DNA from: Ignavibacteriales bacterium
GTDB lineage: Bacteria; Bacteroidota; Ignavibacteria; UBA10030; UBA8401
Direction of reading: 5' to 3'
NCBI GenBank assembly: GCA_026390635.1
Contig: JAPLFO010000143.1
Span: 1,890-65,889 of the forward strand
DNA length: 64,000 nt
The first letter of the stretch is position 1; the number at the start of each line of letters is the position of its first letter. The notes under the pieces were generated by a model. The model had not been told where the DNA came from and made no database searches. It saw nothing but the letters and a program-made list of their open reading frames with translations. Below, piece by piece: positions 1,361-36,840 of the stretch. The translations under genes and the position numbers were made by a program.

Positions 1361-1506
1361 ATTGTCCCTTTTCATATATACTATTGTGTATATACAAAGA
1401 ACGTGGCACATAGTCAAGGGGAATATTCCACAATGAATGCGTTTGCTCTTTGGCGGACGACGGGAGATATGTCTGTCGTGACATGCGAAAAAAGCAATGC
1501 TCCAAG

Positions 1507-1565
1507 GTGTAACTGTAACAGGCGAAAATACTCCTCATTCGGCACTTCGGTTACACTTTCAATTC
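1507..1565. repeat. Direct repeat copy B, overlapping the integrase stop codon
   Basis: Same 22-nt and 16-nt blocks as 389-446, with a 21-nt non-identical spacer. The last 7 nt lie inside the 3' end of the integrase CDS. Confidence 0.8.
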
Positions 1566-4052: not shown

Positions 4053-4085
4053 ATCTCCTGCCGTTTCAAATAGGTGAATTTGAAT

Positions 4086-4150
4086 TCGTTTCGCTCACGC
4101 GTCACCCCGAGCGAGTCCCGCAGGGACGAGTCTCCCGAAGGGATGCCTTT
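4086..4150. repeat. Short palindromic repeat of the GTCAxCC(C/T)GAGCG family
   Basis: gtcaccccgagcgagtcccgcagggacgagtctcccgaaggg. Related arms occur at 44998, 45750 and 45832. Confidence 0.5.
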
Positions 4151-4202
4151 GGCAGAGGGGCGTTACACTGGCACCATAACACAAGATTGATTTTTAAATA
4201 GC

Positions 4203-8030: not shown

Positions 8031-8430
8031 CTATTTTTGACCTAATGGTGCAATCGTTCTGCCAAAGACGACACCCTTTTTGTTCCAGCAAGGATAAGCG
8101 TCAACGCGCTGAGGGAGAACCAATGATATTCTTCCAGACCTGCCCCGCCTGCGTGTCTGCACCGAATGTCTCCCGGCTTCCTTCTTCTCATTCACCAGCG
8201 TTGCTACCTCGCGGCCAAGCAGATCGAAAACTTTCAACGCGACCAATGATTGATATGGAATTTGTTCGTCTAGAACTCCGGTCAAAACGAGATTGCGTCC
8301 CGCCGATGGCGGGATGGAATATTCGACAATTATTGCCGGATTGATGGGGTTGGGATAATTCTGATGAAGCAAATGTGCAGAGGGATAAAACCCGTGCCCG
8401 GACGTTGCTGTGCCTGTTGCAGACAATGAG
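8031..8430 (-). pseudogene. Orphan T9SS-type C-terminal sorting domain remnant
   Basis: LHQNYPNPINPAIIVEYSIP...LKVFDLLGREVATLVNEKKEAGRHSVQ matches the Por/T9SS CTD pattern. There is no cargo domain and no credible start, and the upstream part of the ORF overlaps the cyclase gene end. Confidence 0.35.
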
Positions 8431-8502
8431 CCGAGATGGATATGCTGTTCAGGAATTTGTTTTCGAGAGAGCTTCTGCTGATATTGCTTTCTCCGCGGAC
8501 AT

Positions 8503-9639
8503 TCACGCCATAATGGAATAGACCTGCACAAAATCGTCGATCCCCTTTATCACCATCGGCGTCAGTTTTTTGTAAGCGAAATTCGTGTGCGTCTGTCGAA
8601 ATGTGGCTTCGTCGACAAGAATTTCCTGCGCTCGAGCGAGACTTGAAAGTCGGGCCGACAGATTCACCGATCTGCCGATCACTGTATAGTCCAATCGTTT
8701 TCCTGATCCAAAGCTGCCCAGAATCACATCTCCGCTCGTAATGCCGATTCCTACGCCAAGTTTTGAAAAATGCTTCTGAAACTCAGCATCATCCTCCAGG
8801 ATCTGGGAAAATTCAGACAGCATCACCTCTGCCGACCGAACAGCGCGCAATGAATCATCTTCGCGCGGGGACGAAACACCGAATACTGCGAGCACGGCAT
8901 CACCAATAAACTTGTCGACCATTCCTGAGTGATCGTAGACGATGTCCGACATTTTTGAATAGAACTGATTGAGCAGCCTGACAACAATTTCCGGCGCAGC
9001 ATGCTCGCTGACGGCGGTAAAACCCCGAATATCGGCCGTCACGGTGGTGATTTTTCTGCGCTCCCCTTTCAGCTGAACAAGCATCTTCCCCTCAATCATT
9101 TTTTCCACGACTTCCGGGGCAACAAATTGTTCGAGCAGACCGCGAATACGGAATTTTTCCGCCTGATCCTGCAACAATTGGTACGCCTGCCGCTTGTTTT
9201 TCAAGAGTGCGCCTGTGTATTCCGCCATCAATTGCACCAATGTCAGATCAATCCCCTTGCCTTCAGTGGCCAACAAAATCACCGCTGTCATTTCGCGATT
9301 GATGGGGATGGGGATCATCAGTGAGACGGACATCGCCGCCAGTGGATCGAGTCGTTCATCATTGAATGGAAGCTGCAGCGGAGCGGTGGTATTGAGGATC
9401 TCTGTCAACGATACAAGAGCATTCACTGCGGAAGCATGTTGGGATTGCGTGAATCCGGACGATGACACAATTATGGCGTCTGTTGAATTACGATGCAGAA
9501 TTATAGAGAGAATGTTTGATGTGCGAAATATCTTTGCAAATGCACCCGCTGCCGCGGCAATGATTGCATTGTCGGATGCAGTGTTGGTGACGGCGTGCAT
9601 CGTTTCAAGCCACCCAGGCAGATATTCGATTGGATTCAT
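8503..9639 (-). CDS. GAF-like domain + class III adenylate/guanylate cyclase
   Basis: VTADIRGFTAVSE...VDKFIGDAVLAVFG...GIGITSGDVILGSFGSGKRLDYTVIGRSVNLSARL. The N-terminal ~160 aa end in a GAF-like LMIPIPINREMTAVILLATEGKG. Confidence 0.8.
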   Translation of the reverse strand: MNPIEYLPGWLETMHAVTNTASDNAIIAAAAGAFAKIFRTSNILSIILHRNSTDAIIVSSSGFTQSQHASAVNALVSLTEILNTTAPLQLPFNDERLDPLAAMSVSLMIPIPINREMTAVILLATEGKGIDLTLVQLMAEYTGALLKNKRQAYQLLQDQAEKFRIRGLLEQFVAPEVVEKMIEGKMLVQLKGERRKITTVTADIRGFTAVSEHAAPEIVVRLLNQFYSKMSDIVYDHSGMVDKFIGDAVLAVFGVSSPREDDSLRAVRSAEVMLSEFSQILEDDAEFQKHFSKLGVGIGITSGDVILGSFGSGKRLDYTVIGRSVNLSARLSSLARAQEILVDEATFRQTHTNFAYKKLTPMVIKGIDDFVQVYSIMA

Positions 9640-9645
9640 AGTTGG

Positions 9646-9993
9646 CTATTTCATTGATGAAAGTGCAGCGTCTTGTGTTGGATGGAGTGTGACGTATTCT
9701 GTCAATCCAATCATATCAAAGATTTTCTGAAAATGAGGTGTGAGACTGCAGACGGCAATTGTTTGATTCTTTTTACGCCCTTCCGTCACAATGCTGATAA
9801 TGATGGCAATGCCGCCGCTGTTGATATAGGCTGCTTCGGCAAAATTGAGAAGAATGTTCCCGTAGTTCTCCCGTGTCAGCTGTTCGTAAATGTCCATCAC
9901 TTCTTTTTCTGAAAATGGAGTGACGTCGCCCATCAAATTGATGATCCCCACACCATTGATGCTGGTGGTCCGGGCAAATTCCTTCTGAGTCAT
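9646..9993 (-). CDS. STAS-domain anti-sigma-factor antagonist (RsbV/SpoIIAA-like)
   Basis: 115 aa. LLNFAEAAYINSGGIAIIISI contains the candidate phospho-Ser (NSGG). The ATG overlaps the kinase stop (ATGA). Confidence 0.8.
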   Translation of the reverse strand: MTQKEFARTTSINGVGIINLMGDVTPFSEKEVMDIYEQLTRENYGNILLNFAEAAYINSGGIAIIISIVTEGRKKNQTIAVCSLTPHFQKIFDMIGLTEYVTLHPTQDAALSSMK

Positions 9994-10445
9994 TGTTGTT
10001 CCCTTTCATTGGTATATTTTTTATGGAGATAGATAATCATCGTTGTGGTGTTGCCGTCGTCCTGCGAACTGAAGGCAACCTCATCCATCAGACTCTTAAT
10101 GAGAAACATCCCCCATCCTCTGGGGGGGAGTGAGCCATCAATTTTTTTTGCAATGTTCGGTTTTCCAACCTCGGGTAGAAATTGTTTCCCCTTATCCTGC
10201 ACATCCACCTGGAGCTTGGATTCCTCGATCGTCAGCGTCACGATCACCTTTTCCGTTTCTACCTGCTTATTCCCATGTTCGATGGCATTCACACAGGCTT
10301 CGGAAATAGCAGTCCGGAGATCGTCGATGCGGTCATTGGTGAATCCCATGATCGCGGCCACTGACGCCGCAGATTCCATCGCCACTTTCTCAAATCCGAG
10401 AATGCTGGGCAGGTGCAGCTGAATTATTTGAGTAGGTTTGTCCAT
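9990..10445 (-). CDS. RsbW/SpoIIAB-like anti-sigma serine kinase (HATPase_c)
   Basis: N box ISEACVNAIEHGN, then VDVQDKGKQF, then GWGMFLIKSLMDEV. 151 aa. Confidence 0.8.
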   Translation of the reverse strand: MDKPTQIIQLHLPSILGFEKVAMESAASVAAIMGFTNDRIDDLRTAISEACVNAIEHGNKQVETEKVIVTLTIEESKLQVDVQDKGKQFLPEVGKPNIAKKIDGSLPPRGWGMFLIKSLMDEVAFSSQDDGNTTTMIIYLHKKYTNEREQQ

Positions 10446-10475
10446 AGTATCAATTCTCTCAAAGTGTGAATTATG

Positions 10476-11951
10476 TTATTGTACTTTTACAACCACCACT
10501 GTCATATCATCATGTTGGGGTGCATCGCCGACATGTTGCTGTACTGCTGTAAAAAGCTGAGTGGTAATATCTTTTGCCGTTGAGTCCACAGATAACGTGC
10601 GCACAAACTGCTCCATGCGCTCAAAACCAAATAACTCTTTCTCCTTATTCATTGCCTCCGGGATACCGTCTGTATAGAAGAATACAATATCGCCCTGATT
10701 CAGCTGCTCTTCCAGTTCGCTATAGTGTACTTCTTCCATAATCCCCAGCGGCAGCCGTACGCCAGGCACTTTGAGGAAACGCACTTCGGTTCCCCGCCTA
10801 AGCATCGGATGCATTTGCCCGGCATTCGAAAGCGTGAATGATCGAGAAGGCAGATCAATCACCGCAAACGATAATGCCGTGAACATTTGCTTCTGCGTCT
10901 TCAAATACATCGGGCGGTTGATTTTCTGAAGAATTATTTTAGGCGATTGGCTGTTTTCTGTTTCCTGATAAATCATTCCAGAAGTCATCACCGCAGTCAT
11001 GGCGGCCTTCATTGCTTTTCCGGAGACATCGGCGATTGCAATACCGAGTTTTGATTGTTTCTCATCAAGCCAAATGTAGTCATAATAATCACCCCCGACT
11101 TCAGTGGCCGGCAGTGACATTCCTGAAATATCATAATTCTCAATGACAGGATCGCCCGACGGCATTAATCCTTTTTGAGTATCCCGGGCGTTCAATAGTT
11201 CTGTCTCATACGCAGCACGTTCACCCGAAGATCTGGAAAATAGAATATTCACTCCGGAGAATGCCGCGATCATAAAAAAGAGAGAGAATGGTCCCAGCAA
11301 TGAACCGTTCGGCATTTGTGTGGCGGCAAGAATTGCTGAGCAGAGAACAATGAGTTGACAAACAAAATTAAGGAAATACAGCGTCTTCGATGTGTCGGGA
11401 ACGAAGTACGGTACCAACTGTATTGTGCGCATGAATGAAAATAGGATATTGGCTGAAGTCCGTAATACTTTCCCAAACCACTTCTCCTTTCGGATGAAAT
11501 AGAGACAGGTCAAACAACATGCGATAATAATCTTCAGACAAAACCTAAAGACAACAATGATGAATATCAAAATGAAGAATGAGGGAATTGGTCTAGAGTA
11601 TAAGAGGTGAGCAAATCTTTTTGACACAAGATAATATATCATAATGACTACAAAAAGCAGCGTTTCCATATATTCAAACAGGGAAAACGAAGCGGATTGA
11701 GCTTCAAGTCCGCTGTGACGAGAATAAAACTTGACAAAAGAAAAGGATTCGTACCATTTCCGGAACTTTGGCGGCATGAGGTTGTATCTGTACAATGGTT
11801 CAAGCATCAATATGACCGACAGGATCACAAGGCCAATCCCCCACCCATAGATACCGTCGTTGAAAGAGAGTATTGACAGAAAACCACAATATGCGATTCC
11901 GGCAAAGAACCAGCCCACATGAATCGGATGATTTGTTTGCGCTTTGATCAC
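10476..11951 (-). CDS. Membrane PP2C/SpoIIE phosphatase, paralog 1
   Basis: C-terminal block: GGDYYDYIWLD...FGIAIADVSGKAMKAAMTAVMTSGMIYQE...INRPMYLKT...SNAGQMHPMLRRG...FFYTDGIPEAMNKEKELFGFER...PQHDDMTVVVVKVQ. N-terminal ~240 aa polytopic. GTG start. Confidence 0.85.
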   Translation of the reverse strand: MIKAQTNHPIHVGWFFAGIAYCGFLSILSFNDGIYGWGIGLVILSVILMLEPLYRYNLMPPKFRKWYESFSFVKFYSRHSGLEAQSASFSLFEYMETLLFVVIMIYYLVSKRFAHLLYSRPIPSFFILIFIIVVFRFCLKIIIACCLTCLYFIRKEKWFGKVLRTSANILFSFMRTIQLVPYFVPDTSKTLYFLNFVCQLIVLCSAILAATQMPNGSLLGPFSLFFMIAAFSGVNILFSRSSGERAAYETELLNARDTQKGLMPSGDPVIENYDISGMSLPATEVGGDYYDYIWLDEKQSKLGIAIADVSGKAMKAAMTAVMTSGMIYQETENSQSPKIILQKINRPMYLKTQKQMFTALSFAVIDLPSRSFTLSNAGQMHPMLRRGTEVRFLKVPGVRLPLGIMEEVHYSELEEQLNQGDIVFFYTDGIPEAMNKEKELFGFERMEQFVRTLSVDSTAKDITTQLFTAVQQHVGDAPQHDDMTVVVVKVQ

Positions 11952-12030
11952 TGTTGTGGCCTTTCGAATTTGAATCCCAAGTCATCCGAAGATCTGTGAT
12001 GCGTTACCTTGGATGAGCCGTTATCGTTTG

Positions 12031-14934
12031 CTATGACACCTTTACCACGACCACCGTCATGTCGTCATGCTGCGGTGCTGCGCCGGCGTATGTTTTTGCG
12101 GCATCAAGTATTGTTTCAGAAATTTCTTGAGAACTCAATTCTGCATTCATCTCTTTCATCGTAGTTTCCAGCCTTTCAAAACCAAACAATTCATCCTTCT
12201 CATTCATCGCTTCGGGAATGCCATCGGTATAGAACAGTAGAATATCACCAATATTCAACTGTTCTTCCAATTCTTCGTATTGAATATCTTCAACGACACC
12301 GAGAGGCAGTCGGGCGCCGGGTACCTTTAGATATCGGATTTCACTACCGCGCTTCAAGAGAGGATGCATCTGTCCCGCATTGGCAACAGTCATAAGCCTC
12401 GAAGCTATGTCGATCACCGCAAACGACATAGCGGTAAACATTTGTTTGTCTGTCTTTAGGTACAGCGGCCGGTTGATCCGTTTCAAAATGGTCCGGGGTG
12501 AATCCGAGATGTTGACTTCGCGGTAGATCATTCCGCTGGTCATGATGGCGGTCATGGCGGCTTTCATCGCTTTGCCCGAGACGTCCGCCATTGCAATGCC
12601 AAATTTTGTTTGTTGTTCATCAAGCCAGACATAGTCATAATAGTCACCGCCGACTTCAAATGAGGGGTAACAACCGCCGGATATGTCAAATCCTTTGACT
12701 ACCGGATCCACGACCGGCATCAGTCCCATCTGTATATCGTGTGCAGTTTGGAGCTCTTCCGCCATTCTCTTCCGTTCTTTGAGCTCCGATTGCTGTCGTT
12801 CATCTGCGATTTTGATAAAGAAAAAGGTGAAGAAGGAAAATACCGTTCCCGCCAGCAGGGGAAGAATTTCTACAATGATTCCAAATTGCGCAGCCAGCCA
12901 TTTTGAGATCATTCCCTGCGCGAAAGCAAGAGCAATGATACCAGCAATGCTATATACGGGCTTCAGAAAGAGCACCATGTACAGAACAAGAAGGATTGTA
13001 ACAAGGGTGATGAAGAATGCATATATGTTGAGGAGCGGCAATGTCGCTTCTCTTTGCAGAATTTGATGAATGATATTGGAATAGATCAGTCTGAATCCGA
13101 CAAATCCTGTAATATATTTTCCCGGATCGACAATAACGATTTTTCCTGCGTACAACGAGCGCCACTCCGCGGGCGGATCATTCGACGCAATTCTCCCAAC
13201 GCCGCCATTGATCATATACTTTATTGAATCAGTCGTCTCAGCGACAGCTATTTGACCTAGGTTATCATCATTATCCCACACCACATAGCGGATATACGCA
13301 CTGTTGTCGCCGAGAAGTCCGGTTGAATATTCCCGATACATTAGTTTGTTTCGGGAAACCCGGATTTTGTTATTCGTCGTATCGCCGCGGAAATAGCGGA
13401 CAGCCACAAGAGCTGCATCCGGTGATGTTTCCCACTCGCCGGTCTTGTAGGATCGCGGATAATATTTGTCCGGCGTTATCATTCCCTGCGGAATTGCCGC
13501 GCTAATGACTCCCCAATCTGTCTTTGTACTGTTTCTAAATGGATCTGTCACAAATAATTCATTGTTCCATGTTCGTCTATCGGGCTGCACCGCAAAGACG
13601 ACGTTCTTTATGTCGGACAATTCTTTCAGTAATGCCGGATTCGCCTCGTAGTACACATAATCCTGCGGGAGGGGAACGACAATGCATCGTACGCCATACG
13701 TATTCAGTGCATCGCAGATCTTTTTCACCGATTTCAAATATGCAATTGGATTTGGCTCTTCCTGTTCTATGTTCCCGACCAGAAGTGTGCTGACGAACGG
13801 ACTCGGATTCCCCTTTCGCGATTCCGCCTTCTCATACGTGAAAAGGTATTGCATTTTTCGACTCCAATCGGACTCGTGGATATATTGAGCAATCACAAGG
13901 ATGCCGATGGTCGCTGCGCCAAGTTTGATGAGATAGAAATATTTCCGATAACGATCTGCGAGCGCGATATCATCCTGCATCTGTCGTTTTACAACGTGAC
14001 TGAAACGATAGAACGTATAAACGAGAAGACCAGGAATCACAATCCCAAGGATAGAAATGAAGAGTACGGAACCACTGAATAGAGCCAGCGGATTAATTTG
14101 ACGAAGTGAAAATCGTTCTCCTGTGTTTTCATTGAGCAATGCATTGCTGGAATGAGGAGAGACAAGAACAGAATAGGAGCTAAAGCTTCCGTCACTTTTT
14201 TCGATTGTTGCTCGCCCTACGATCTTCACCGTCGTATCGTTTGGAGTATCGATGATAGCGTAGTTGCCAAAACGATTTTGCTCGGGGAATCCAAGTTCAT
14301 GCAGCGTTACTGTTTTTCTGCTATGGATAGAGTGGAATGATCCATTCCCTCCTCCCAGTCCCTTCGGTAGGAAGTAATACTCCTGAAGCTTGGCGGAGAT
14401 TTTGTCGACATCGTTGGCCACGGCGTCAGTACAGTCCGAGAGCGCATTATCCTGCCGGATTGTCGTAAAAACCAATCGAGTGACGATATTCGTGCTGACA
14501 ATACCAATACAATTGAAGACAATGATTGAAATAGATGCCGTGTAGAGAAAGATGTTGAGAAGATAGAGATATATATTCCGTCGGGCAAAAACGATCGGAT
14601 CGTGCATGGTTCTAAAATAGCGCCAGTAGAATACTATTCCGAGCGGAGCAAAGACATATTGAATAAGAATATTGAGAAGCATCCTTCCAGCCATTGCAGA
14701 ACCGAACGGTGTTATGATATTCCCTGAAAATTCCGCGATACCGTAGGTAACCGTCATCCACCCCGCAGTGTAATAGACCGGCACAACGATATTGGAAAAA
14801 GAAATTTCTCGAGGGTCCCTACCTCGCACAGGAAATGTGCCAAAAAGAAAACCCAATTCAATAATGATGAGAATTGCCATGAACAATCGTCTCATTGTTA
14901 CGGGACGTAGGCCGGATTCAATTCTTTCTTTCAT
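12031..14934 (-). CDS. Membrane PP2C/SpoIIE phosphatase, paralog 2, with very large sensor region including a CHASE2-like domain
   Basis: Same C-terminal PP2C blocks (GGDYYDYVWLD, ADVSGKAMKAAMTAIMTSGM, PQHDDMTVVVVKVS). The ~720-aa N-terminal region has several TM helices and a ~250-aa extracytoplasmic segment followed by 3 TM helices, as in CHASE2. AAGGAG precedes the ATG. Confidence 0.85.
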   Translation of the reverse strand: MKERIESGLRPVTMRRLFMAILIIIELGFLFGTFPVRGRDPREISFSNIVVPVYYTAGWMTVTYGIAEFSGNIITPFGSAMAGRMLLNILIQYVFAPLGIVFYWRYFRTMHDPIVFARRNIYLYLLNIFLYTASISIIVFNCIGIVSTNIVTRLVFTTIRQDNALSDCTDAVANDVDKISAKLQEYYFLPKGLGGGNGSFHSIHSRKTVTLHELGFPEQNRFGNYAIIDTPNDTTVKIVGRATIEKSDGSFSSYSVLVSPHSSNALLNENTGERFSLRQINPLALFSGSVLFISILGIVIPGLLVYTFYRFSHVVKRQMQDDIALADRYRKYFYLIKLGAATIGILVIAQYIHESDWSRKMQYLFTYEKAESRKGNPSPFVSTLLVGNIEQEEPNPIAYLKSVKKICDALNTYGVRCIVVPLPQDYVYYEANPALLKELSDIKNVVFAVQPDRRTWNNELFVTDPFRNSTKTDWGVISAAIPQGMITPDKYYPRSYKTGEWETSPDAALVAVRYFRGDTTNNKIRVSRNKLMYREYSTGLLGDNSAYIRYVVWDNDDNLGQIAVAETTDSIKYMINGGVGRIASNDPPAEWRSLYAGKIVIVDPGKYITGFVGFRLIYSNIIHQILQREATLPLLNIYAFFITLVTILLVLYMVLFLKPVYSIAGIIALAFAQGMISKWLAAQFGIIVEILPLLAGTVFSFFTFFFIKIADERQQSELKERKRMAEELQTAHDIQMGLMPVVDPVVKGFDISGGCYPSFEVGGDYYDYVWLDEQQTKFGIAMADVSGKAMKAAMTAIMTSGMIYREVNISDSPRTILKRINRPLYLKTDKQMFTAMSFAVIDIASRLMTVANAGQMHPLLKRGSEIRYLKVPGARLPLGVVEDIQYEELEEQLNIGDILLFYTDGIPEAMNEKDELFGFERLETTMKEMNAELSSQEISETILDAAKTYAGAAPQHDDMTVVVVKVS

Positions 14935-15544
14935 GGCTTACTCCTTTCTCCGTCAACACTGAGCACATCTGGATATGGCCCTTCTGCCCGTTGATATTTG
15001 AAAAGACTGGACTCCATCCCCGGGCTACCGAATCCATCGAAACGATGGTCACGGCGGAATCTGACACTCCTGTAATGAAGTACAGGTCGTCACTATGCAC
15101 CTTCACCGTCAATTTATTCTCATGAATGTCAGAGGAATGTATCCGGCGAAACAGAATGCCAAGAGATTGTTTCGGCTCCTTCTGCTCATAATATGCGCGA
15201 TAGACCGGCATCAATGCTTCCTGTGTTTGGCCGACAATTGCTTCGTCGGATATTCTCGTCCGTATCTCAGTCAGTTTAGCCCGTTGCCATGTCGTCATGG
15301 AATAGAATACAGACCAAGCAGAAGCTGTTGCTGCAAAGAGCACCGCAAGAAGAACGATGAGGAGTATCTTTTTCAGCAGGGATACCTTTGATGCCGCCAA
15401 TTGTCTTATGAGGTACACTGCGGCAAAAGCACCTCCTCCGATCGTTCCGGCTATGGCAGAGCTCCATGGATCTGTCGGTGAGTAGAAAACGATGAATGAT
15501 ATGCAGACCATTGCGCTCCCAGCTGCGAGCCATCGTAGATACAT
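14918..15544 (-). CDS. Hypothetical membrane protein embedded in the PP2C array
   Basis: 208 aa with three hydrophobic helices followed by a ~120-aa soluble tail. The stop overlaps the paralog-2 start by 17 nt. Confidence 0.5.
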   Translation of the reverse strand: MYLRWLAAGSAMVCISFIVFYSPTDPWSSAIAGTIGGGAFAAVYLIRQLAASKVSLLKKILLIVLLAVLFAATASAWSVFYSMTTWQRAKLTEIRTRISDEAIVGQTQEALMPVYRAYYEQKEPKQSLGILFRRIHSSDIHENKLTVKVHSDDLYFITGVSDSAVTIVSMDSVARGWSPVFSNINGQKGHIQMCSVLTEKGVSHERKN

Positions 15545-15610
15545 AGAATCTCCATCGTTTGATGAAGCGTGATTGTTGATTCAATCTTGGTTGTAGGCAC
15601 ATTAATAGTT

Positions 15611-17017
15611 TCACGCCACTTTCACGACCACAACGGTCATATCATCATGCTGCGGTGCGGTGCCGGTATGATGATGCACTGCTGCAAACAGCCGGTCTAT
15701 TATTTCTTTGGCTGTCAGCTGCGCATTTAACCTGCGCACAAATTGCTCCAACCGCTCGAATCCGAATAGTTCCTTCTCCGCGTTCATTGCTTCAGGAATG
15801 CCGTCGGTAAAGAAGAGAATCAAATCGCCAGGCGAGAGGGACTCCGTCAGTTCATCGTACACAATCTCTTCCATCACACCCAGCGGCAATCGCACACCCG
15901 GTACGGTAAGGAACTTCAATTCGTCGTTTCGTTTTAAAATCGGCGGCAATTGTCCGGCGTTGGAAAGCCGCAACGTTCTGCCGATCGTGTCAATTTCTGC
16001 AAAGGACATGGCGGTAAACATCTGCTTCTGCGTTTTTAAATACATGGGACGGTTGATCTTCCGGAGAATCGTTTTCGGTGTGTTGTTACTTCCAATTTCC
16101 CGATACACCATGCCGCTGGTCATCACTGCGGTCATGGCGGCTTTCATCGCTTTCCCCGATACGTCGGCGATTACAATGCCGAATTTTATCTTATCCTCAT
16201 CCAACCACACATAGTCAAAATAGTCTCCGCCGACTTCTGCCGCAGGCCTGCTCGTGCCGGAGATATCAAAGCCAATGAGAGCGGGATCCTCCGTTGGCAT
16301 CAACCCAAGCTGCAACTCGGTCGCCGTCCGCAGTTCATGGCGGTACGTGTTCTTCTCCAACACTTCAGCGTATAGTACCGCAATAACCATAAAGATGGAC
16401 ACAACACAGCCCGCAATAAGCGCAGTCGCCGTCGCTGTCCGGGTCGTAACGAAAAGAACATACAATAAAAGCCATGTGCTGACATAGCCGGCGAAAAAAT
16501 ACCAACGACGGTCTTTGCTGATTTCGTCGAAGATTGCAAGCTTGTAGTCACCGCCGACAAGTATCGCTGCCTTCAAGAGAGATATTTTTTTTCCGGGAAT
16601 GTGCACATCTTTCATCGCGGTACTGACGTATTGGGAATACTTCATCAAAAACCAACCGCCGACGCCCCAGAACACAAGAACGAAGACAATGAAAGCAAGA
16701 ATAATAATAATGCCTTCTTCCAGGCCATTGGAAAGAATTATACCGAATCCGACGACGAGAGAGATGCCGCTGATGAACATTGTGCCTTTGAACAGGAGTG
16801 CATTTTTTTTAATCTGTTCCAAATGGTACCCAAACCAGATTGAGTATGCCACCAGCAGACTGAAGAATCCCGAGACAAGAATGACCTCTACTCGATAGGC
16901 AAAAGTAATAGGGATGCCGGCTTCTTTGACCAGCCTCAACACAAGCAGAAGAAAGAAATACGAAGAAAATGCAACAAACAGTCCCACAAAGAATTTTGAA
17001 CGCAGAAGTGTTTTCAT
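15611..17017 (-). CDS. Membrane PP2C/SpoIIE phosphatase, paralog 3
   Basis: GGDYFDYVWLD...FGIVIADVSGKAMKAAMTAVMTSGMVYRE...FFTDGIPEAMNAEKELFGFER...PQHDDMTVVVVKVA. Polytopic N-terminus unrelated to the other paralogs. Confidence 0.85.
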   Translation of the reverse strand: MKTLLRSKFFVGLFVAFSSYFFLLLVLRLVKEAGIPITFAYRVEVILVSGFFSLLVAYSIWFGYHLEQIKKNALLFKGTMFISGISLVVGFGIILSNGLEEGIIIILAFIVFVLVFWGVGGWFLMKYSQYVSTAMKDVHIPGKKISLLKAAILVGGDYKLAIFDEISKDRRWYFFAGYVSTWLLLYVLFVTTRTATATALIAGCVVSIFMVIAVLYAEVLEKNTYRHELRTATELQLGLMPTEDPALIGFDISGTSRPAAEVGGDYFDYVWLDEDKIKFGIVIADVSGKAMKAAMTAVMTSGMVYREIGSNNTPKTILRKINRPMYLKTQKQMFTAMSFAEIDTIGRTLRLSNAGQLPPILKRNDELKFLTVPGVRLPLGVMEEIVYDELTESLSPGDLILFFTDGIPEAMNAEKELFGFERLEQFVRRLNAQLTAKEIIDRLFAAVHHHTGTAPQHDDMTVVVVKVA

Positions 17018-17018
17018 A

Positions 17019-18509
17019 TCAGTTCACCTTGACCGCAACTACTGTCATATCATCGTGCTGCGGCGCCTGCCCTGCAAAGCGCTGGACTTCTGCAAGAAGC
17101 CCTGCCGTGATCGTCTTTGCCGAGGACTGCGGCTGCACGCTGCCGACAAAGGAGTCGATACGATCAAATCCGAAAAGCTCCATCTTCTCATTCATCGCCT
17201 CAGCAATACCGTCGGTAAAGAAGAGAATCAGATCGCCGGAAGATAATTGTTCGGACACTTCATTGTACTGGGAGTCTTCTATCACGCCTAACGGCAGTCG
17301 ATTTCCGGTGACATGGAGATATTGAATTTCATTACCGCGCTTCAGCAACGGAGGCATTTGTCCCGCATTGGAAAGTGTGAGGATGCGTGTGGATGTGTCG
17401 ATAACGGCAAAGGAGAGCGCGGTAAACATTTGCTTTGAGGTTTTTAGATACATTGGACGATTGATATGCTGAAGAATTACCTTTGGCGACATTGAATTGC
17501 CAATTTCGGTGTAAATCATGCCGCTGGTCATCACTGCGGTCATGGCAGCTTTCATTGCCTTGCCCGAAACATCGGCGATGGCAATACCGAATTTTGTTTT
17601 TTCATCATTCAGCCAGACATAATCGTAATAGTCTCCGCCGACTTCATTGGCGGGAATCGTGCTTCCCGATATTTCCAGTCCGGGAACAACCGGATCCGAT
17701 TCCGGCATGAGGCCGAATTGCATCGCTCTCGCAACATTCAATTCAGCCTTGGCGGCTTCTTTCTCAGACGTTTCCATGGCCGTCAACACCAAGGAAGAAA
17801 TCGTTGTCAATGCAGGCAGGCCAACCAACACCAGCAGAGCCACACCAGGGATAACTCCAAAGACGAAATTCGGCAACCCGGTCGCCTGAGACAGGAATGC
17901 GATCCAGTGGGGTATGTTCGGGCTGGAAACACCGAGCAGGAATGCGAAATAGGGAAAGATCGAACCGACCGCCAGAACAATGAAGAGCGTCCTTTTCTGA
18001 CGTTTCGATGAGGCCGTCCAGAGAGATTCGCCGATCGCACCGTCAGTGACAAAGCTTACCTGCACAAGCGACAAGAGTGATCGGGATCTCTTTGCTTTCT
18101 CAATGATGGCCGATTCCCTTCTTCGTATCCGCGTCTGCATCAGTTTCATTGGCAAGAGAATGACAATAAGGATGGCGCCGAAGACTTTAACGATGGGATA
18201 GAATGTATGACTGTAAATGCCATGATCGACCACAAAGAACTGCAGGAACCCCGCCAGAAAAAAAATGAGAACATACAGAACGGTATAGAGAATCTTCCCC
18301 CGCGGCGAGAGGATGTGAACATCCTTCATTGCTTCATTACCTACAGGAGCATAGAGCAGCTCGATGAAAAGAATATTGCAGAAGAATCCGACCACATACA
18401 GCGTCAGATAGAGGGTCGGCAGTTTAGAAGAGAACGCCAGAAGGATTGAGATGACATAAAATGTCACGACAATGGAGAAGAGTATGCCGTACAACGGTAT
18501 TTTTTTCAT
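17019..18509 (-). CDS. Membrane PP2C/SpoIIE phosphatase, paralog 4
   Basis: GGDYYDYVWLN...FGIAIADVSGKAMKAAMTAVMTSGMIYTE...FFTDGIAEAMNEKMELFGFDR...PQHDDMTVVAVKVN. 1-nt gap to paralog 3. Confidence 0.85.
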   Translation of the reverse strand: MKKIPLYGILFSIVVTFYVISILLAFSSKLPTLYLTLYVVGFFCNILFIELLYAPVGNEAMKDVHILSPRGKILYTVLYVLIFFLAGFLQFFVVDHGIYSHTFYPIVKVFGAILIVILLPMKLMQTRIRRRESAIIEKAKRSRSLLSLVQVSFVTDGAIGESLWTASSKRQKRTLFIVLAVGSIFPYFAFLLGVSSPNIPHWIAFLSQATGLPNFVFGVIPGVALLVLVGLPALTTISSLVLTAMETSEKEAAKAELNVARAMQFGLMPESDPVVPGLEISGSTIPANEVGGDYYDYVWLNDEKTKFGIAIADVSGKAMKAAMTAVMTSGMIYTEIGNSMSPKVILQHINRPMYLKTSKQMFTALSFAVIDTSTRILTLSNAGQMPPLLKRGNEIQYLHVTGNRLPLGVIEDSQYNEVSEQLSSGDLILFFTDGIAEAMNEKMELFGFDRIDSFVGSVQPQSSAKTITAGLLAEVQRFAGQAPQHDDMTVVAVKVN

Positions 18510-18544
18510 AGCGGGCTCATGATTATTCTTATGATTTTACATTG

Positions 18545-19987
18545 TCATGCCTGCGCTACTTGTACCTTTGCCACAACCACAGTCATGTCGTCATGCTGTA
18601 GTGCAGTTCCGCTATATGTCTGGACTGCTTCGAGTAATTGATCCGTGATCTCTTTGGCTGTTGATGTTGTGTTTACATCATGAACAAATTGTTCCAATCG
18701 CTCAAATCCAAATAATTCTCTATTCTTGTTCATTGCCTCGGGAATGCCGTCGGTGTAGAACAGAAGAATATCGCCGGATTGCAATTGCTCAGAGAGTTCT
18801 TGGTATTCAATGTCTTTGATGACGCCGAGCGGCAGATGGGGGCCGGAGACTTTCAATGTGATGACATCGCTGCCCCGTTTCAACAGCGGATTCATCTGTC
18901 CGGCATTGGAGAAGAGAAGTCGTTTCGACGAAATATCGATGACACCGAACGAAAGCGCTGTGAATACCTGCCTGGATGTTTTGAGGTACATCGGTCTATT
19001 GATTTCCTGCAGAATCAAACGCGGCGTGCTGTTGCTCTCAATTTCACGGTAAATCATGCCGCTGGTCATCACAGCGGTCATGGCGGCTTTCATGGCTTTG
19101 CCGGAAACATCGGCAATGGCTATTCCAAATTTTGTCTTCTCCTGATCCAGCCAGACATAATCATAATAATCACCGCCGACTTCCAGCGCCGGATAGCACG
19201 ATCCTGAAATATCAAAGCCTGATATTTCCGGATCCGACACAGGCATCAAGCTGAGTTGCATATCATGGGCGGTTTTTAACTCAGCCTCGGAAGCTATCCG
19301 GACATTTTCTTCCTGTGAAAAGATCAGCAATTGTCCGAATGAGACGAACACCATGAAAATGAGAGCAACCGGGCCGATGATATTTCCCTGCGGAAGCCAA
19401 ATACTCACAAAAAATCCGGCTATCGAGAGGCATGAGATCAACACTCCGATCCCGACGGATCGAATGGATTTATTCTCAGCGTGCCGGCCCATTCCAGCCA
19501 GGAACTGCATGATGACCGATGATCCACTGTACGAACCAAACCTCTCCTGCAAGAAGACGCCGGCCAGACCTAGAATCGACGAGAGGGCAAACATACTGAA
19601 CATTCCGACTGCGTAGATCCGGGCGGGGAGCCAGGTCGATCCCAGAAAACCGTTCTCATATACTAGACCTGCAATAATAAAAATCATTCCCACGAGTGAG
19701 ACAATAAGAGATATCTTTACGCCTTTCGGAGTCGTATTTTGGGCCGGCCTGAATAATTTCTGCACTCCAAGATAGAAATGACTAAATCTGGGAGGCAGGC
19801 GATTTTTCCGGTCTAGCGGTTCAAGGAGAAATAGAACTCCGACAAAGAAGAGTACAAGACCGAGAATCCGCATATGCCACTCCAGTGTGGCCTTGACAAA
19901 ATCTGCCACTCCGACGGCTGCAAAGAACACGGCAAATAAATAAAACCAGAAGGATGCAATAGGTTTGTTCGTAGGCTCTTGTCTCAT
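18545..19987 (-). CDS. Membrane PP2C/SpoIIE phosphatase, paralog 5
   Basis: GGDYYDYVWLD...ADVSGKAMKAAMTAVMTSGMIYRE...FYTDGIPEAMNKNRELFGFER...LQHDDMTVVVAKV. I chose the ATG at 19985-19987 (AAGGGAG upstream); the ORF-track start at 20035 is a TTG. Confidence 0.8.
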   Translation of the reverse strand: MRQEPTNKPIASFWFYLFAVFFAAVGVADFVKATLEWHMRILGLVLFFVGVLFLLEPLDRKNRLPPRFSHFYLGVQKLFRPAQNTTPKGVKISLIVSLVGMIFIIAGLVYENGFLGSTWLPARIYAVGMFSMFALSSILGLAGVFLQERFGSYSGSSVIMQFLAGMGRHAENKSIRSVGIGVLISCLSIAGFFVSIWLPQGNIIGPVALIFMVFVSFGQLLIFSQEENVRIASEAELKTAHDMQLSLMPVSDPEISGFDISGSCYPALEVGGDYYDYVWLDQEKTKFGIAIADVSGKAMKAAMTAVMTSGMIYREIESNSTPRLILQEINRPMYLKTSRQVFTALSFGVIDISSKRLLFSNAGQMNPLLKRGSDVITLKVSGPHLPLGVIKDIEYQELSEQLQSGDILLFYTDGIPEAMNKNRELFGFERLEQFVHDVNTTSTAKEITDQLLEAVQTYSGTALQHDDMTVVVAKVQVAQA

Positions 19988-20559
19988 AGGTGCTCCCTTT
20001 GTATGCCGTATCGTTACTTCATTTTCGTCATGCAATCAATGACGTGCTGAGGGGAATTCAAAGCAATAAAAGCGCAATCGGAGAAGATGTGCACCAATGA
20101 ATCTTTTTCTTGAAGAGGAGGCACGGCACAGAAAATGAAAGGAGCCGGTCTCCCAAAACTTTTTGCGAATGGGGATGGTGCTGTTGTTCAACTCAGCGTT
20201 CATTGTTGTTCCTCCCGGTGGATGCAAGTCGTTGACTATTGATCCTCCTGACAACAATCGTCTTGACACTCACTCTTACTACGGCTGGAATGATTTACTG
20301 TTTGTGATTATTATCACGAGAGCAGGATCGCTCTTTGTCGATGGGATGCCATAAAGAAACAGCATACAACGGAGCAAATTTCAGATAAATTGCCGCAAAT
20401 GTCAACAGAAACAATGGCTGATCATATTATCCTAGGAGTGATGTAGTAGAACTGTCGGGTTGCAAAACGATGTGAGGATTGGTTTGCGTATTCTCTTTGC
20501 GTTGATTTGGGATGGGCACCTGGTTGGGACAACTCGACAACTGGGAGACTATGCGGCCG

Positions 20560-22761
20560 TCACTTCGTCTTCAGCACGAACACTCCATCCCAATCGGGTG
20601 ACGGAGGAGATTGGAGATAAAATTGAGCGCGTTCGATATAGAGTCCGGACGGTGCGTCCGGATTGATTGTGAGTGCGTTTTGAAATTGTGCGATCGCGCC
20701 GGCAAAATCCCGCTGGCGGTACAGTCTCAAGCCGATAGAATATGCAGCAACTGCATCGAGCCTGCTTTGGGGGATACTGCCGTCATTCCGTCCGATGAGT
20801 TCAAAGACTTTGATCGGCTTCGTCTTCCCTTTCACAACGAGCAGATCGAGTTCCCGGAAGACAAATTTTTCCTTCGCCAGATCCTGTGTCCGTTCACTTA
20901 CCATCATATAGGTTCCATACTGCTTGTTGGCGCCTTCGAGGCGCGATCCAAGATTGACGCTGTCTCCGATGACGGTATAGTCGAATTTTCCGCGTCCGCC
21001 CATGTTGCCGACAACCATATCGCCGGTGTTGAGACCGATACGGACGTGGATATCCGGTTTGCCTTCAGATGTCCATTTTTCCCGGAGCACGTCGATCTCT
21101 TCCTGCATCTCGACGGCTGCTGCACAGGCCTGCACTGCGTTATTGTCAAGTTCGATCGGCGCACCCCAGAACGCCATCACCGCATCGCCTTCGTATTTGT
21201 CCAGGGTGCCGTCATGCTTGAAAACGATATCGGTCATGGCACTCAGGTACTCGTTCAGGAGTAGAACAAGTTCCTCCGGCGGAAGGCTCTCGGAGAACGA
21301 TGTAAATCCTGCGATATCGCTGAAGAGCACCGTCAGTTCTTTTCGTTCACCGCCAAGACGGAGTTTTTCGGGATGTGCAATTAATTCGTTCACCACTGTC
21401 GGATTTAAATACTGGCTGAACATACCCTTGATCATCACTTTTTGTTTCCGCTCGGTAAGATACTGATAGACCGTGCACCCGAGGTAGTTGGCGAAGACGG
21501 CGGCAATCGGTGAGACGACCGGCAAAATCAGAAAACGCGCAGAAAATATATTTTGTGAGACGAGAATGATGAGAATAACTTCACCGAGAATAAAAAGAAC
21601 TGCTGCGATTTCGACAATGATCTGATATTTTGCTTTGATGACTTTGAGTGCAGAGACAAAGAGGAATGTGATGATGGAAATAATGATGGTATAAAGAAAC
21701 TCCGACCAGCGGGGAAGCCGGGTGATGAAGTTTTGGCTGATCAATGTCTGCAGTGCATTGGCGTGCAGCTCGACCCCGTACATCAGGATTTTGTTCGGTG
21801 AGGACGGATCGCTGATCGGAACAGGAAAGAGGTCTTTAGACTCCGGGAACGCCGGTCCGATCAAAACGACTTTGTTCTTGAACGTACCGTCGTACAGACG
21901 GCCGATGTCGGGATCATCGAAGGCATTGATCTGCGTATGATAGGCGCGCTCTTCTTTCGTCTCGAACGTTGAATCATCAAGCACTTCAACAATGTCAAGC
22001 TGCTTGAACGTCTTATCGGCCGGCCCGTGATAATTGATCAGCATCGAGACATCGTCATATTTCGGTATGTGTCTGCCGCCGAGATAAAACGCTGTCCCCT
22101 CTTCGGAACATGCTGCCGTGGAAGGAAGGCGGAGATACTTGTTCAGAAGTGCGAACGCGAAGGTCGGGACGTAGGTTTCTTCGCCGGGTACCTTCGCAAA
22201 AGGAACGTAGCGACGGAAGATTCCGTCTTCATCTTCGGGAACATAGACCACCCCGACAGAACTGTCGGCGGGATAAAATATTGTATGATAGTTTTCGTCT
22301 GTGCGTTTAATGCTCGCTTCGGCAATTTTGATTTCAGTCTTTCCCGCCACGACCACGTTGCGGTACGTACGGATGGCATCGAACAGCTCTTGGTCATATT
22401 TCGGCCCGTTGGCGTCCGGTTGTTCAAAGGTAAGGTCGATGCCGATCGCGCGCGCGCCCGCCCGGTTCAGATTGCGGACCGCCCTTGCATAGTAGTTCCG
22501 GGGAAAAGGAAATTGATGCGGAACACTGTTCTCCGATTTGTCTGAAATCGTTACGATAACGACGTCGAGCGATTCCTTGGGGATCGGCAGAGGGCCGCGG
22601 CGGGAGAAGGATCGGTCAATAAAGGAGAGTTTCAGGCGATCGAACAGTTTGAAGTCGACAACGGCATCCTGAACAAAAACAAGCACAAGAAGAGCAATGC
22701 CGAGGCTGAGAAGTATCCGTATCAGCCACGGCATTATTCGTTTGAACCAGGGTGACGTCAT
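20560..22761 (-). CDS. CHASE2-sensor class III adenylate/guanylate cyclase with C-terminal TPR-like tail
   Basis: One N-terminal TM. CHASE2 pattern: DVVIVTISDKS...FPFPRNYYARAVRNLNRAGARAIGIDLTFEQPD ... KVVLIGP ... then 3 TM helices. Cyclase core: LTVLFSDIAGFTSFSE...LDKYEGDAVMAFWGAP...KFDYTVIGDSVNLGSRLE. Confidence 0.85.
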   Translation of the reverse strand: MTSPWFKRIMPWLIRILLSLGIALLVLVFVQDAVVDFKLFDRLKLSFIDRSFSRRGPLPIPKESLDVVIVTISDKSENSVPHQFPFPRNYYARAVRNLNRAGARAIGIDLTFEQPDANGPKYDQELFDAIRTYRNVVVAGKTEIKIAEASIKRTDENYHTIFYPADSSVGVVYVPEDEDGIFRRYVPFAKVPGEETYVPTFAFALLNKYLRLPSTAACSEEGTAFYLGGRHIPKYDDVSMLINYHGPADKTFKQLDIVEVLDDSTFETKEERAYHTQINAFDDPDIGRLYDGTFKNKVVLIGPAFPESKDLFPVPISDPSSPNKILMYGVELHANALQTLISQNFITRLPRWSEFLYTIIISIITFLFVSALKVIKAKYQIIVEIAAVLFILGEVILIILVSQNIFSARFLILPVVSPIAAVFANYLGCTVYQYLTERKQKVMIKGMFSQYLNPTVVNELIAHPEKLRLGGERKELTVLFSDIAGFTSFSESLPPEELVLLLNEYLSAMTDIVFKHDGTLDKYEGDAVMAFWGAPIELDNNAVQACAAAVEMQEEIDVLREKWTSEGKPDIHVRIGLNTGDMVVGNMGGRGKFDYTVIGDSVNLGSRLEGANKQYGTYMMVSERTQDLAKEKFVFRELDLLVVKGKTKPIKVFELIGRNDGSIPQSRLDAVAAYSIGLRLYRQRDFAGAIAQFQNALTINPDAPSGLYIERAQFYLQSPPSPDWDGVFVLKTK

Positions 22762-22770
22762 ATGCCGCCC

Positions 22771-25149: not shown

Positions 25150-25185
25150 AACTGTCCGCCTATGATGTCGTTGGAAGGGAATTGA

Positions 25186-25232
25186 AAACCGCTTGCAAAC
25201 TATGAAACCGGAAGAAGAATTGCAAGCGGTTT
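25186..25232 (-). terminator. 13-bp stem-loop between the FecR-domain gene and the OM barrel gene (terminator/attenuator-like)
   Basis: AAACCGCTTGCAA (25186-25198) pairs perfectly with TTGCAAGCGGTTT (25220-25232). On the minus strand it is followed by UUUUCAAUU. Confidence 0.35.
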
Positions 25233-25295
25233 GAACTCAACTCATGAGTCAAAAAGCATCCATGTTTTCAATGAAATCAAATTCTGCATCACCTC

Positions 25296-26429: not shown

Positions 26430-26457
26430 AGATAAATCTCCTCGGTCTCTCACAAAG

Positions 26458-27606: not shown

Positions 27607-27997
27607 GGTGCCTCCTGAAGTTTTAAAAAACGGGGTCAGCAACTTTCTGCAATAATATACACTTATTAGATATTTCCCGGCTGTGTTGAACGTCACGAAG
27701 CATTATCCGCCGGGAATGATTCAATAGGTCATAAAGGCCTGAATAGCGGCATTTGGTGTCTTATGCCAACGGTATACCGTCGGGAGCCGCAATGTTTTTC
27801 ATGCTCTGTATAACATCTGTTAATAATACAATTTTTCTTCATCTTCAACAAGCACATCAGGAAATTATGCAAGTGATCTTTTGCATTTCATGTCCCGATT
27901 CCGCCGCCCGGTAACTTCACAGAAAGATAATCTATGGATAATCAGCATATAACAGGAATAGGGTATCTTGTTGCGTGATCAATGAGAAGGAGATGCC

Positions 27998-35003: not shown

Positions 35004-35021
35004 TTCTGACGCTTCTCCTTT

Positions 35022-35786: not shown

Positions 35787-35792
35787 CGGAAA

Positions 35793-36713: not shown

Positions 36714-36748
36714 TCAGAGAATGTATGTGTTCAACATAAATCGCTTTA

Positions 36749-36768: not shown

Positions 36769-36840
36769 TTTGCAGAATAAATCCAATGGGCTGTTGCGTC
36801 ATTTCGAAAAGATCGTCCACTCGTCATACCGGTAAAGCGA

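Follow-up and report, generated by a model that had tools for sequence, protein, structure and literature searches.

A partner-switching gene set with five membrane phosphatases and a linked class III cyclase in an Ignavibacteriales bacterium

We analysed a 64,000-nucleotide stretch of DNA from an Ignavibacteriales bacterium (contig JAPLFO010000143.1, positions 1,890 to 65,889), referred to below as the window or the 64-kb window. Its minus-strand genes from 19987 to 8503 encode five SpoIIE/PP2C phosphatases with predicted membrane-spanning N-termini, an RsbW-like serine kinase, a STAS protein and a class III nucleotidyl cyclase. The best explanation that we can offer, and one in which our confidence is about even, is that these genes constitute one signalling unit, a partner switch with cyclic AMP (cAMP) synthesis as its output. 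A comparison with other genomes showed that linkage to such a switch is specific to cyclases bearing the N-terminal domain of this family. Partner switching is the textbook mechanism of sigma-factor control, and the few outputs that are not sigma factors feed cyclic di-GMP (c-di-GMP) synthesis, polysaccharide and motility functions.

Gene order and the switch proteins

Open reading frames (ORFs), strands and coordinates were rechecked over the window, with domains assigned by Pfam scan. An original prediction had been made from the letters of the window, and its ORFs, strand and coordinates were all as given there. In the order of transcription on the minus strand, the genes encode PP2C_A, PP2C_B, PP2C_C, a membrane protein of 208 amino acids (aa), PP2C_D, PP2C_E, the kinase, the STAS protein and the cyclase, with intergenic spacings of 35, 1, 66, −17, 79, 30, −4 and 6 nucleotides (nt). 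The tight gaps, the ATGA overlap of kinase and STAS and the 6-nt spacer between STAS and cyclase were confirmed, the −17-nt overlap belonging to an extra ORF. The gene block is flanked by gaps of 572 nt upstream and 590 nt downstream. The upstream gap (19988–20559, minus strand) is non-coding and likely to be the promoter region of the operon. An ORF of doubtful reality lies in it (20036–20269, minus strand), which would encode 55 aa from an ATG behind GGAGG or 77 aa from a GTG, ends at the first array gene and has no family match. Scans for promoter and terminator consensus sequences from 7.8 to 23 kb gave results not usefully better than shuffled sequence; the consensus excludes promoters of the Fibrobacterota–Chlorobiota–Bacteroidota (FCB) group, and the scans are silent on operon structure. 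Rfam and tRNA scans returned a tRNA-Leu as their sole match, with no riboswitch or RNA element found near the cassette.

The kinase (9990–10445, minus strand; 151 aa) carries an HATPase_c_2 domain (Pfam E 1.7e-28), and its best solved relative is Bacillus subtilis RsbW (6M36, E 1.5e-15). Across five cassettes, neither the N-box (NAIEHG) nor the G2 box (RGWGxFLI) of the kinase varies. The STAS protein (9646–9993, minus strand; 115 aa) consists of a single domain (Pfam STAS E 2.6e-10), with a start that overlaps the stop of the kinase gene. Its Ser59 falls opposite the phospho-acceptor of SpoIIAA, Ser58, and an NS[GA]GIAI motif is kept in all five cassettes. The identities first proposed for both proteins are thus upheld by Pfam, with the ATP-binding boxes and the acceptor serine intact. 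In NCBIfam, the best matches of the kinase are RsbW and SpoIIAB, with 89 bits for RsbW against a cut-off of 145, and the STAS protein scores 45.4 in the anti-sigma antagonist superfamily against a cut-off of 53.45. Because these scores lie under the equivalog cut-offs, we call the two proteins RsbW-like and RsbV-like rather than orthologs. A hidden Markov model (HMM) scan of the window found one STAS ORF and one RsbW-like ORF. A stressosome of the RsbR/RsbS/RsbT type was ruled out on the single STAS gene in the window.

Within the block from 8.5 to 27.7 kb, Pfam detected no Sigma70 domain in ORFs of at least 150 aa on either strand, and in the rest of the window no Sigma70_r2 or Sigma70_r4 domain was found in the larger non-overlapping ORFs (at least 180 aa) that were scanned. 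Searches of the window by phmmer with an extracytoplasmic function (ECF) sigma factor, a Crp and small cyclic-nucleotide-binding (cNMP-binding) proteins of related loci gave no match. The lack of a sigma factor, first remarked on for the block around the array, therefore also holds among the ORFs scanned elsewhere in the window. To our knowledge, FCB-group bacteria generally lack SigB- and SigF-type sigma factors.

The cyclase and its N-terminal domain

The cyclase gene (8503–9639, minus strand) encodes 378 aa, arranged as a putative GAF-like domain (residues 1–130), a signalling helix (132–169) and a class III cyclase domain (190–378; Guanylate_cyc, E 2.2e-21); GGDEF is absent from the Pfam scan. 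Residues D203, D247, K243, T319, N326, R330 and R315 are present and invariant. The first six, which do not vary in six relatives, are the catalytic residues and comprise the metal-binding aspartates (D203 and D247), the transition-state pair (Asn326 and Arg330) and the substrate pair (Lys243/Thr319). The Lys/Thr pair is shared with Pseudomonas aeruginosa CyaB (DKFVGD, DYTIIG); in the guanylyl cyclase Cya2, these positions are occupied by Glu/Gly. Such a pair is a mark of class IIIb adenylyl cyclases. The original prediction had named cAMP or cGMP as the output; the class III residues are indeed intact, and because Lys243/Thr319 are as in CyaB, we predict cAMP rather than cGMP as the product.

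The same prediction had described the enzyme as a GAF-like class III cyclase. The second half of this description is borne out by the Guanylate_cyc match and the full set of catalytic residues, while the first stands through homologs and a structure model only. Pfam gives no match at all to residues 1–190 of the window cyclase, GAF included. An AlphaFold2 model built from six sequences (mean predicted local distance difference test score 82) shows an alpha/beta domain over residues 1–130, a long helix over 132–169 and the catalytic domain, and Foldseek places the phytochrome-linked cyclase 6FHT on top over 420 columns, followed by the catalytic domains of CyaB, Cya2 and CyaC. The cassette homologs have a longer N-terminus, in which a coiled coil and an HLKTLYDVS motif precede the GAF-like domain. 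GAF_3 exceeds the Pfam threshold in L007 and L011, with 28.6 and 31.8 bits, and gives weak matches in L001, L003 and L004; L-numbers (L001–L172) label the relative loci compared with the window cassette. The window N-terminus ties to this family through L001–L003 (BLAST E 5e-8 to 2e-5). Only transitive homology and predicted fold thus speak for a GAF-like N-terminus.

Linkage of switch and cyclase in other genomes

A search with the whole cyclase yielded five full-length relatives with 40–84% identity (L001–L004 and ERZ1426824). All five lie in the order SpoIIE(n)-HATPase_c_2-STAS-cyclase between unrelated flanks, with 1, 1, 2, 2 and 4 phosphatase genes. Searching with a profile of the N-terminal domain gave 69 proteins, and in the first five whose gene contexts were examined STAS is upstream in every case, together with the kinase in four; in this subgroup, a small cNMP-binding protein usually sits between STAS and the enzyme. 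As controls we used 80 class III cyclases from metagenomes, taken from among the matches listed, which do not include close relatives. L085 is the only one of them with RsbW-STAS directly upstream and also the only one to share the N-terminal domain; the other control cyclases with at least 1.5 kb of upstream sequence have STAS or RsbW in 0 of 50 cases. Overall, STAS is directly upstream in 11/11 relatives identified by way of the cyclase or its N-terminal domain, compared with 0/50 controls (Fisher p = 2.4e-12), and RsbW is there too in 10/11; the eleven are the loci not found via the kinase (5 + 5 + L085) and are not fully independent phylogenetically. The number of PP2C genes called near the cassette ranges from 0 to 4 among relatives, with 5 in the window. 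The combination of STAS, RsbW and cyclase with a variable number of PP2C genes, which the original prediction had singled out for comparison, does therefore recur.

The linkage also follows the quality of the domain match. Strong matches to the N-terminal-domain HMM (E <= 1e-28) with upstream sequence all have STAS within 2.7 kb, whereas weak matches (E >= 1e-10), which resemble ordinary GAF domains, have no STAS within that distance. STAS and enzyme occur without an adjacent RsbW in L058 (11964–13679) and L165, and a kinase-cyclase pair without STAS was found at no locus. In a representative library, the N-terminal profile gave 671 matches at E <= 1e-30, a number swamped by giant multi-GAF proteins that does not represent family size; the relevant matches are full-length with 200–600 aa. 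Stand-alone GAF-like proteins were dropped as a class, as several of them are truncated or frameshifted calls, for example in L167 and L169, where cyclase fragments lie directly behind.

An RsbW-anchored scan of GTDB species genomes served as a contrast, not as a cassette count. It returned mostly Acidobacteriota PP2C-RsbW-STAS triads without a cyclase, and cyclase cassettes in genomes labelled Methylomirabilota (L007) and delta proteobacterium (L058) and in an unclassified bacterium (L011); the cassette is also present in records labelled Bacteroidetes. In a neighbour-joining tree of the kinases, drawn without support values, those linked to enzymes with the coiled-coil and GAF-like module cluster apart from those of the cyclase-less triads. 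The compact triad, with a PP2C of ~390 aa, is found in dozens of Acidobacteriota genomes (L005–L084, e.g. L016, L024 and L069), and no sigma factor or other conserved gene lies downstream of it.

The five-phosphatase array

The five phosphatases of the original prediction all match SpoIIE in Pfam, with E-values from 1e-42 to 1e-46. PP2C_A (18545–19987, minus strand; SpoIIE E 2.6e-44) and PP2C_B (17019–18509, minus strand; E 1.6e-43) each have a polytopic N-terminus with about six segments in the transmembrane (TM) scan. For PP2C_A the start is probably the ATG at 19987, behind a GGGAG ribosome-binding site, rather than the TTG at 20035 given by the ORF lister. PP2C_B keeps the metal-binding Asp motifs, and PP2C_C (15611–17017, minus strand; E 4.7e-46), also polytopic at its N-terminus, follows 1 nt behind it. 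PP2C_D (12031–14934, minus strand; E 1.9e-42) is much longer, with 967 aa and TM segments around large extracytoplasmic regions; its residues 347–625 share homology with the N-terminal part of the only PP2C in L002 (E 1e-12). PP2C_E (10476–11951, minus strand; E 2.1e-43) again has a polytopic N-terminus, and the PDB entries that match it best are phosphatase domains of SpoIIE, with which its Asp motifs line up. The closest relative, ERZ1426824, lacks a called gene in the PP2C_E position; it has four phosphatase genes, not five, and a cyclase 297 nt behind STAS (genes 9356–9703 and 10001–10636).

A gene for a 208-aa protein with two TM-like segments by hydropathy (14918–15544, minus strand) overlaps the PP2C_D start by 17 nt. 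Searches of Pfam and NCBIfam with this protein gave no match. An overlapping pair of a 208-aa protein and a 968-aa phosphatase is also present in ERZ1426824, and because the pairing with the long phosphatase recurs there, the small protein is probably an accessory subunit of the PP2C_D sensor. The genes originally listed are all present, while this ORF and a cyclase gene with a CHASE2 domain upstream of the array (20560–22761, described below) had been overlooked.

Over the C-terminal 250 aa, the phosphatases share 62–67% pairwise identity in protein and ~65% in nucleotide sequence. The motifs GGDYYD, ADVSGK, TDGI and HDDMTVV are kept in all five PP2C domains and align with SpoIIE structures. 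The eight motifs quoted in the original prediction are likewise all present, with one-residue deviations in two of them, paralog 1 having LGIAI in place of FGIAI and paralog 2 ANAGQ in place of SNAGQ. The N-termini span ~220–720 aa with roughly at least six hydrophobic segments each. As had been claimed, they are mutually unrelated apart from one pair, PP2C_A and PP2C_E (BLAST E 9e-7), and the motif LEPL.R.N..PP.F is restricted to paralogs 1 and 5. The phosphatase tree is star-like, with the L001 ortholog nested among the window paralogs. Because another genome's ortholog is nested inside this tree and nucleotide identity is only ~65%, the phosphatases are best regarded as old paralogs; on the same evidence, recent tandem duplication or concerted evolution was ruled out.

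A proposed route from five phosphatases to cAMP

In the mechanism that we propose, five membrane phosphatases with different sensors, one of them with the 208-aa accessory protein, would dephosphorylate a single STAS protein at Ser59, and the RsbW-like kinase would put the phosphate back. The phosphorylation state of STAS would in turn control the neighbouring adenylyl cyclase, a soluble GAF-like enzyme, at the post-translational level. One form of STAS, the unphosphorylated one by analogy with SiaC, would bind the GAF/signalling-helix module of the cyclase and stabilise the catalytic dimer in its active form. Each of five stimuli would in this way raise cAMP, whose receptors would be encoded in other parts of the genome.

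The specific and recurrent linkage of STAS/RsbW to the cyclase suggests that switch and cyclase act together, and we consider it likely, from sequence and analogy, that the switch controls the cyclase post-translationally through some contact. RsbU and RsbP converge on RsbV in a comparable way. That all five window phosphatases act on one STAS we infer from their membership of the operon, their strongly conserved catalytic domains and the presence in the window of just one STAS gene and one kinase gene. Of the multi-input hub wired to the cyclase in the original prediction, the domains, residues, spacing and cassette linkage stand as observations, while the five-to-one convergence, the component that touches the cyclase and the sign of control are interpretation.

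The best mechanistic template is SiaABCD of P. aeruginosa, in which the SiaA phosphatase and the SiaB kinase set the phosphorylation of SiaC (PMC8457831, PMC7647112). SiaC binds the helical stalk of SiaD only when unphosphorylated, and stabilises the active dimer (PMC8457831). Since a catalytic dimer that is driven via an N-terminal coiled coil is likewise required in class III cyclases, this logic may well transfer to the window cyclase. Which switch protein makes the contact is a separate matter. The sigB and spoIIA operons have the canonical order STAS-kinase-sigma. We favour STAS because it is the invariant adjacent neighbour of the enzyme, because it is kept without the kinase in L058 and L165, and because the order kinase-STAS-enzyme reverses the canonical one. 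Gene order and neighbourhood make a modest case, and we judge the chance that STAS is the contacting partner to be near the midpoint.

Several observations weigh against this proposal. The wiring between switch and cyclase is read wholly from gene linkage and analogy. The N-terminus of the window cyclase is the most diverged of its family (19.9 bits with a leave-one-out profile), and it lacks the N-terminal coiled coil and HLKTLYDVS, the best-conserved features of the family. In ERZ1426824, whose cyclase is 84% identical, the enzyme as called has 211 aa and no N-terminal domain. In L172, the GAF-like domain is fused to a PP2C in the same gene slot, and the module may sense a ligand or dock the small cNMP-binding protein rather than STAS. 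L169 and L170 have two RsbW-STAS pairs per cyclase, and the pairing of one STAS with one enzyme, as in L058, is less convincing for it. The sigma-factor negative spans 64 kb, and a cognate sigma factor could lie elsewhere in the genome. Finally, Valentini et al. reportedly found in 2016 that HsbA activates HsbD when phosphorylated; on this account, the sign of regulation cannot be read from precedent.

The strongest competing explanation, a serious one although we hold it to be improbable, is sequestration. The kinase would hold the cyclase, or its GAF/helix module, inactive, and dephosphorylated STAS would capture the kinase and free the cyclase, just as RsbV does in releasing sigma-B from RsbW; inputs and output, the five phosphatases and cAMP, would stay the same. 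The kinase is suitably RsbW-like, with RsbW as its best PDB match and RsbW and SpoIIAB as its NCBIfam matches, it is present in 10/11 cassettes, and the cyclase-linked kinases form their own groups in the neighbour-joining tree. There is also a precedent in the Moorella kinase MtT, which binds and attenuates the diguanylate cyclase MtG (PMC7647112). Yet it is STAS and not the kinase that adjoins the cyclase, in reverse of the canonical order, and the two loci with STAS and cyclase but no adjacent kinase have no counterpart with kinase and cyclase but no STAS. Moreover, a STAS-like protein is the binder in three of the four characterised switch-to-cyclase systems.

Somewhat less probable still is that the switch has no direct control over the cyclase. 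Its target would be a sigma factor or another enzyme elsewhere, and the cyclase would merely be co-transcribed and be regulated by a small ligand of its own GAF-like domain, or else act upstream with cAMP feeding the switch. GAF domains commonly bind small ligands. Our view covers 64 kb of the genome, and most close relatives of the RsbW-like kinase, those in the Acidobacteriota triads, have no cyclase, so the kinase family must have other targets. An action of cAMP on the switch would also fit the phosphatases with fused cNMP_binding and SpoIIE domains, the small cNMP-binding proteins and the GAF-like-PP2C fusions of related loci. In the window, however, Pfam finds no cNMP-binding or GAF domain for cAMP in the five phosphatases, the kinase or the STAS protein, and the window scans found no sigma factor or Crp-type protein. 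Above all, a linkage of 11/11 against 0/50 that persists across distant lineages, with changed flanks and changed PP2C number, is not what co-transcription predicts. Membership of the cyclase in a Pycsar-like anti-phage system, with the switch genes regulating defence, is very improbable and was ruled out: the enzyme does match PADLOC PycC profiles (best E 1.2e-23), and L165 and L166 have an Apyc1-like gene close to the cassette, but the PycC similarity is generic, as the neighbouring CHASE2 cyclase scores better (E 1.2e-30), no TIR or transmembrane effector is adjacent, the other cassette proteins have no PADLOC match, and the Lys/Thr pair points to a purine (ATP) substrate.

If control of the cyclase by the partner switch is real, cAMP would join the messengers that are set by Ser-phosphorylation switches, and an uncharacterised group of bacterial cyclases would gain a regulatory mechanism. 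STAS, kinase and cyclase would make a simple soluble system for studying a partner-driven transition from coiled coil to catalytic dimer, and the array would be a natural case of many sensors acting on one phospho-node, with an input number that varies among close relatives. Because none of these organisms is in culture, the gain would be in concepts and comparison more than in immediate use.

The GAF-like module on other enzymes

The GAF-like module is not confined to cyclases. Behind RsbW-STAS, with or without the cNMP-binding protein, it is found on a histidine kinase in L058 and L168 and on a PP2C in L171 and L172, and in L014 it is on a sigma-54 activator upstream of PP2C-RsbW. Such fusions, with HisKA-HATPase_c, Sigma54_activat-HTH_8 or SpoIIE, are located at 10430–11974 in L058, 6001–7209 in L168, 2123–3691 in L014 and 2369–3505 in L172, and they always lie beside RsbW and/or STAS genes. 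We tentatively suggest that the coiled coil and the GAF-like module form a dedicated partner-switch coupling domain for interchangeable enzymes, which would act via phospho-STAS, the RsbW-like kinase or, in some lineages, a small cNMP-binding adaptor. This would, if true, represent a widespread and undescribed output logic of partner switches, including a cAMP feedback loop and the five-input hub in the window.

The cNMP-binding protein that separates STAS from the GAF-like enzyme in cassettes of the deltaproteobacteria type has ~155 aa and a C-terminus ending in LKETRQELKIHFKT. It is encoded at 9692–10156 in L058, 5430–5912 in L165, 5288–5758 in L167, 5137–5598 in L169, 2538–3008 in L170, 264–722 in L171 and 1889–2347 in L172. 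In addition, a cNMP domain is fused to the cyclase in L011, L168 has a cNMP-binding PP2C, and a Crp-type gene lies beside the cassette in L004. Feedback of cAMP on the switch is plausible in relatives, given the small protein and the cNMP-binding or Crp-type proteins of these last three loci. The Apyc1-like (anti-Pycsar) gene, of the metallo-beta-lactamase fold, lies 1.3 kb downstream of the STAS-cNMP-cyclase cassette (L165 8636–9460; L166 2838–3662), and its product could be a phosphodiesterase acting on the cyclic nucleotide of the cassette.

Other genes in the window

The CHASE2 cyclase gene (20560–22761, minus strand) lies 572 nt upstream of the array and encodes CHASE2 (E 8e-51), class III cyclase (Guanylate_cyc, E 3e-24) and TPR domains, with a K/T active site of the adenylyl type. 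Its membership of the unit is uncertain; it is absent beside the cassette in L001–L004 and ERZ1426824, and one such gene is near the cassette of L168. It is the last of a four-gene cluster (20560–27696, minus strand), together with genes for a 412-aa protein, a FecR-domain protein resembling Lsa33/LipL45 and a 792-aa protein without family match.

On the other side, an ORF at 8031–8531 (minus strand) overlaps the cyclase stop by 29 nt. It contains NYPNPINP...LGREVATLVNE, which we take to be a C-terminal sorting motif of type IX secretion, and looks like a gene remnant, as it has no protein body upstream and no match in Pfam or NCBIfam. It is followed by genes for a radical SAM enzyme, a 730-aa polytopic spermidine-synthase-like protein and a Memo+AMMECR1 fusion (2895–7912, minus strand), presumably a set of the AmmeMemoRadiSam type with an unusual membrane methyltransferase-like partner. 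At the window edge (735–2593, minus strand), a PIN/VapC-like toxin ORF and a tyrosine-integrase-like ORF, recognised by eye from the translations, may mark the border of a mobile element.

Further away, a 1246-aa fusion of 2Fe-2S, GltD-like pyridine-nucleotide oxidoreductase, 4Fe-4S and molybdopterin oxidoreductase parts is encoded beside a NuoF-like flavoprotein (49176–55233, minus strand); the set resembles a soluble redox complex linked to formate or NAD(P)H. Among named organisms, the NuoF-like protein has its best relatives, with about 80% identity, in metagenome-assembled genomes of Zixibacteria, Ignavibacteria and Bacteroidota, which places the source in the FCB group. The window also has a PhoU-PstB-PstA-PstC-PstS operon with a phosphate-porin-like gene (34332–40227, minus strand), a HAMP histidine kinase without adjacent response regulator (41242–42684, plus strand) and an HTH-WYL-WCX regulator (45860–46855, plus strand).

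Comparison with known systems

The three protein families of the window switch are those of the B. subtilis systems RsbU/RsbP-RsbV-RsbW-sigmaB and SpoIIE-SpoIIAA-SpoIIAB-sigmaF, and its closest structures are RsbW, SpoIIAA and SpoIIE. Action of more than one phosphatase on one STAS is established in B. subtilis, with RsbU and RsbP on RsbV, and is what we propose for the window. The window differs in having no sigma factor, the order kinase-STAS-target and five inputs rather than two.

HsbR is a phosphatase-kinase fusion that receives its input from a phosphorelay, and FlgM is a further binding partner of HsbA. Diguanylate cyclases are controlled by partner switches in SiaABCD, HsbR/HsbA/HsbD, BgrU/W/V-BgrR and Moorella MtT-MtG (PMC7647112, PMC8457831, PMC5085249). 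Like the window set, SiaABCD is an operon of phosphatase, kinase, switch protein and cyclase with a membrane-anchored PP2C, no sigma factor and a synthase that dimerises through an N-terminal helix. It has a GGDEF output and one phosphatase, compared with a class III cyclase and five phosphatases in the window, where the cyclase has the putative GAF-like domain in addition. SiaC belongs to the DUF1987 family with Thr68 as acceptor (PMC8457831), whereas the window has a canonical Pfam STAS with a Ser acceptor, and the window PP2Cs score 31–34 bits on the SiaA model, for which the cut-off is 700. In HptB-HsbR-HsbA-HsbD of P. aeruginosa and BgrU/BgrW/BgrV-BgrR of Sinorhizobium meliloti, as proposed for the window, PP2C and kinase set the phosphorylation state of a STAS protein that regulates a second-messenger cyclase (PMC5085249, PMC7647112, PMC8457831), HsbA-HsbD and BgrV-BgrR being the STAS-to-cyclase links (PMC7647112). 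Their output is c-di-GMP, and a multi-phosphatase array is not described for either. In Moorella thermoacetica, the partner-switch kinase MtT directly regulates the cyclase MtG (PMC7647112), again with a GGDEF output, and the system has a stressosome scaffold of the RsbR/RsbS type, in contrast to the single STAS gene of the window.

On the side of the cyclase, Anabaena CyaB1/CyaB2 and the phytochrome-linked cyclase 6FHT have the succession of sensor, long coiled-coil helix and class III domain that is predicted for the window enzyme. Their fused sensor is driven by ligand or light. The GAF-like domain of the window enzyme is too diverged for Pfam. We know of no partner-switch proteins that act on GAF- or phytochrome-regulated class III cyclases. 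A full-text literature search found no partner switch controlling a class III cyclase, the joint mentions of adenylate cyclase being two-hybrid assays or unrelated work. The novelty claimed in the original prediction thus holds, as far as we can see, for the cAMP-type output, while the precedent of the diguanylate cyclases had been understated there. Messenger synthases driven by partner switches are already known; the features that appear to be new here are an output of the cAMP type through a class III cyclase, a dedicated GAF-like module and an array of five inputs.

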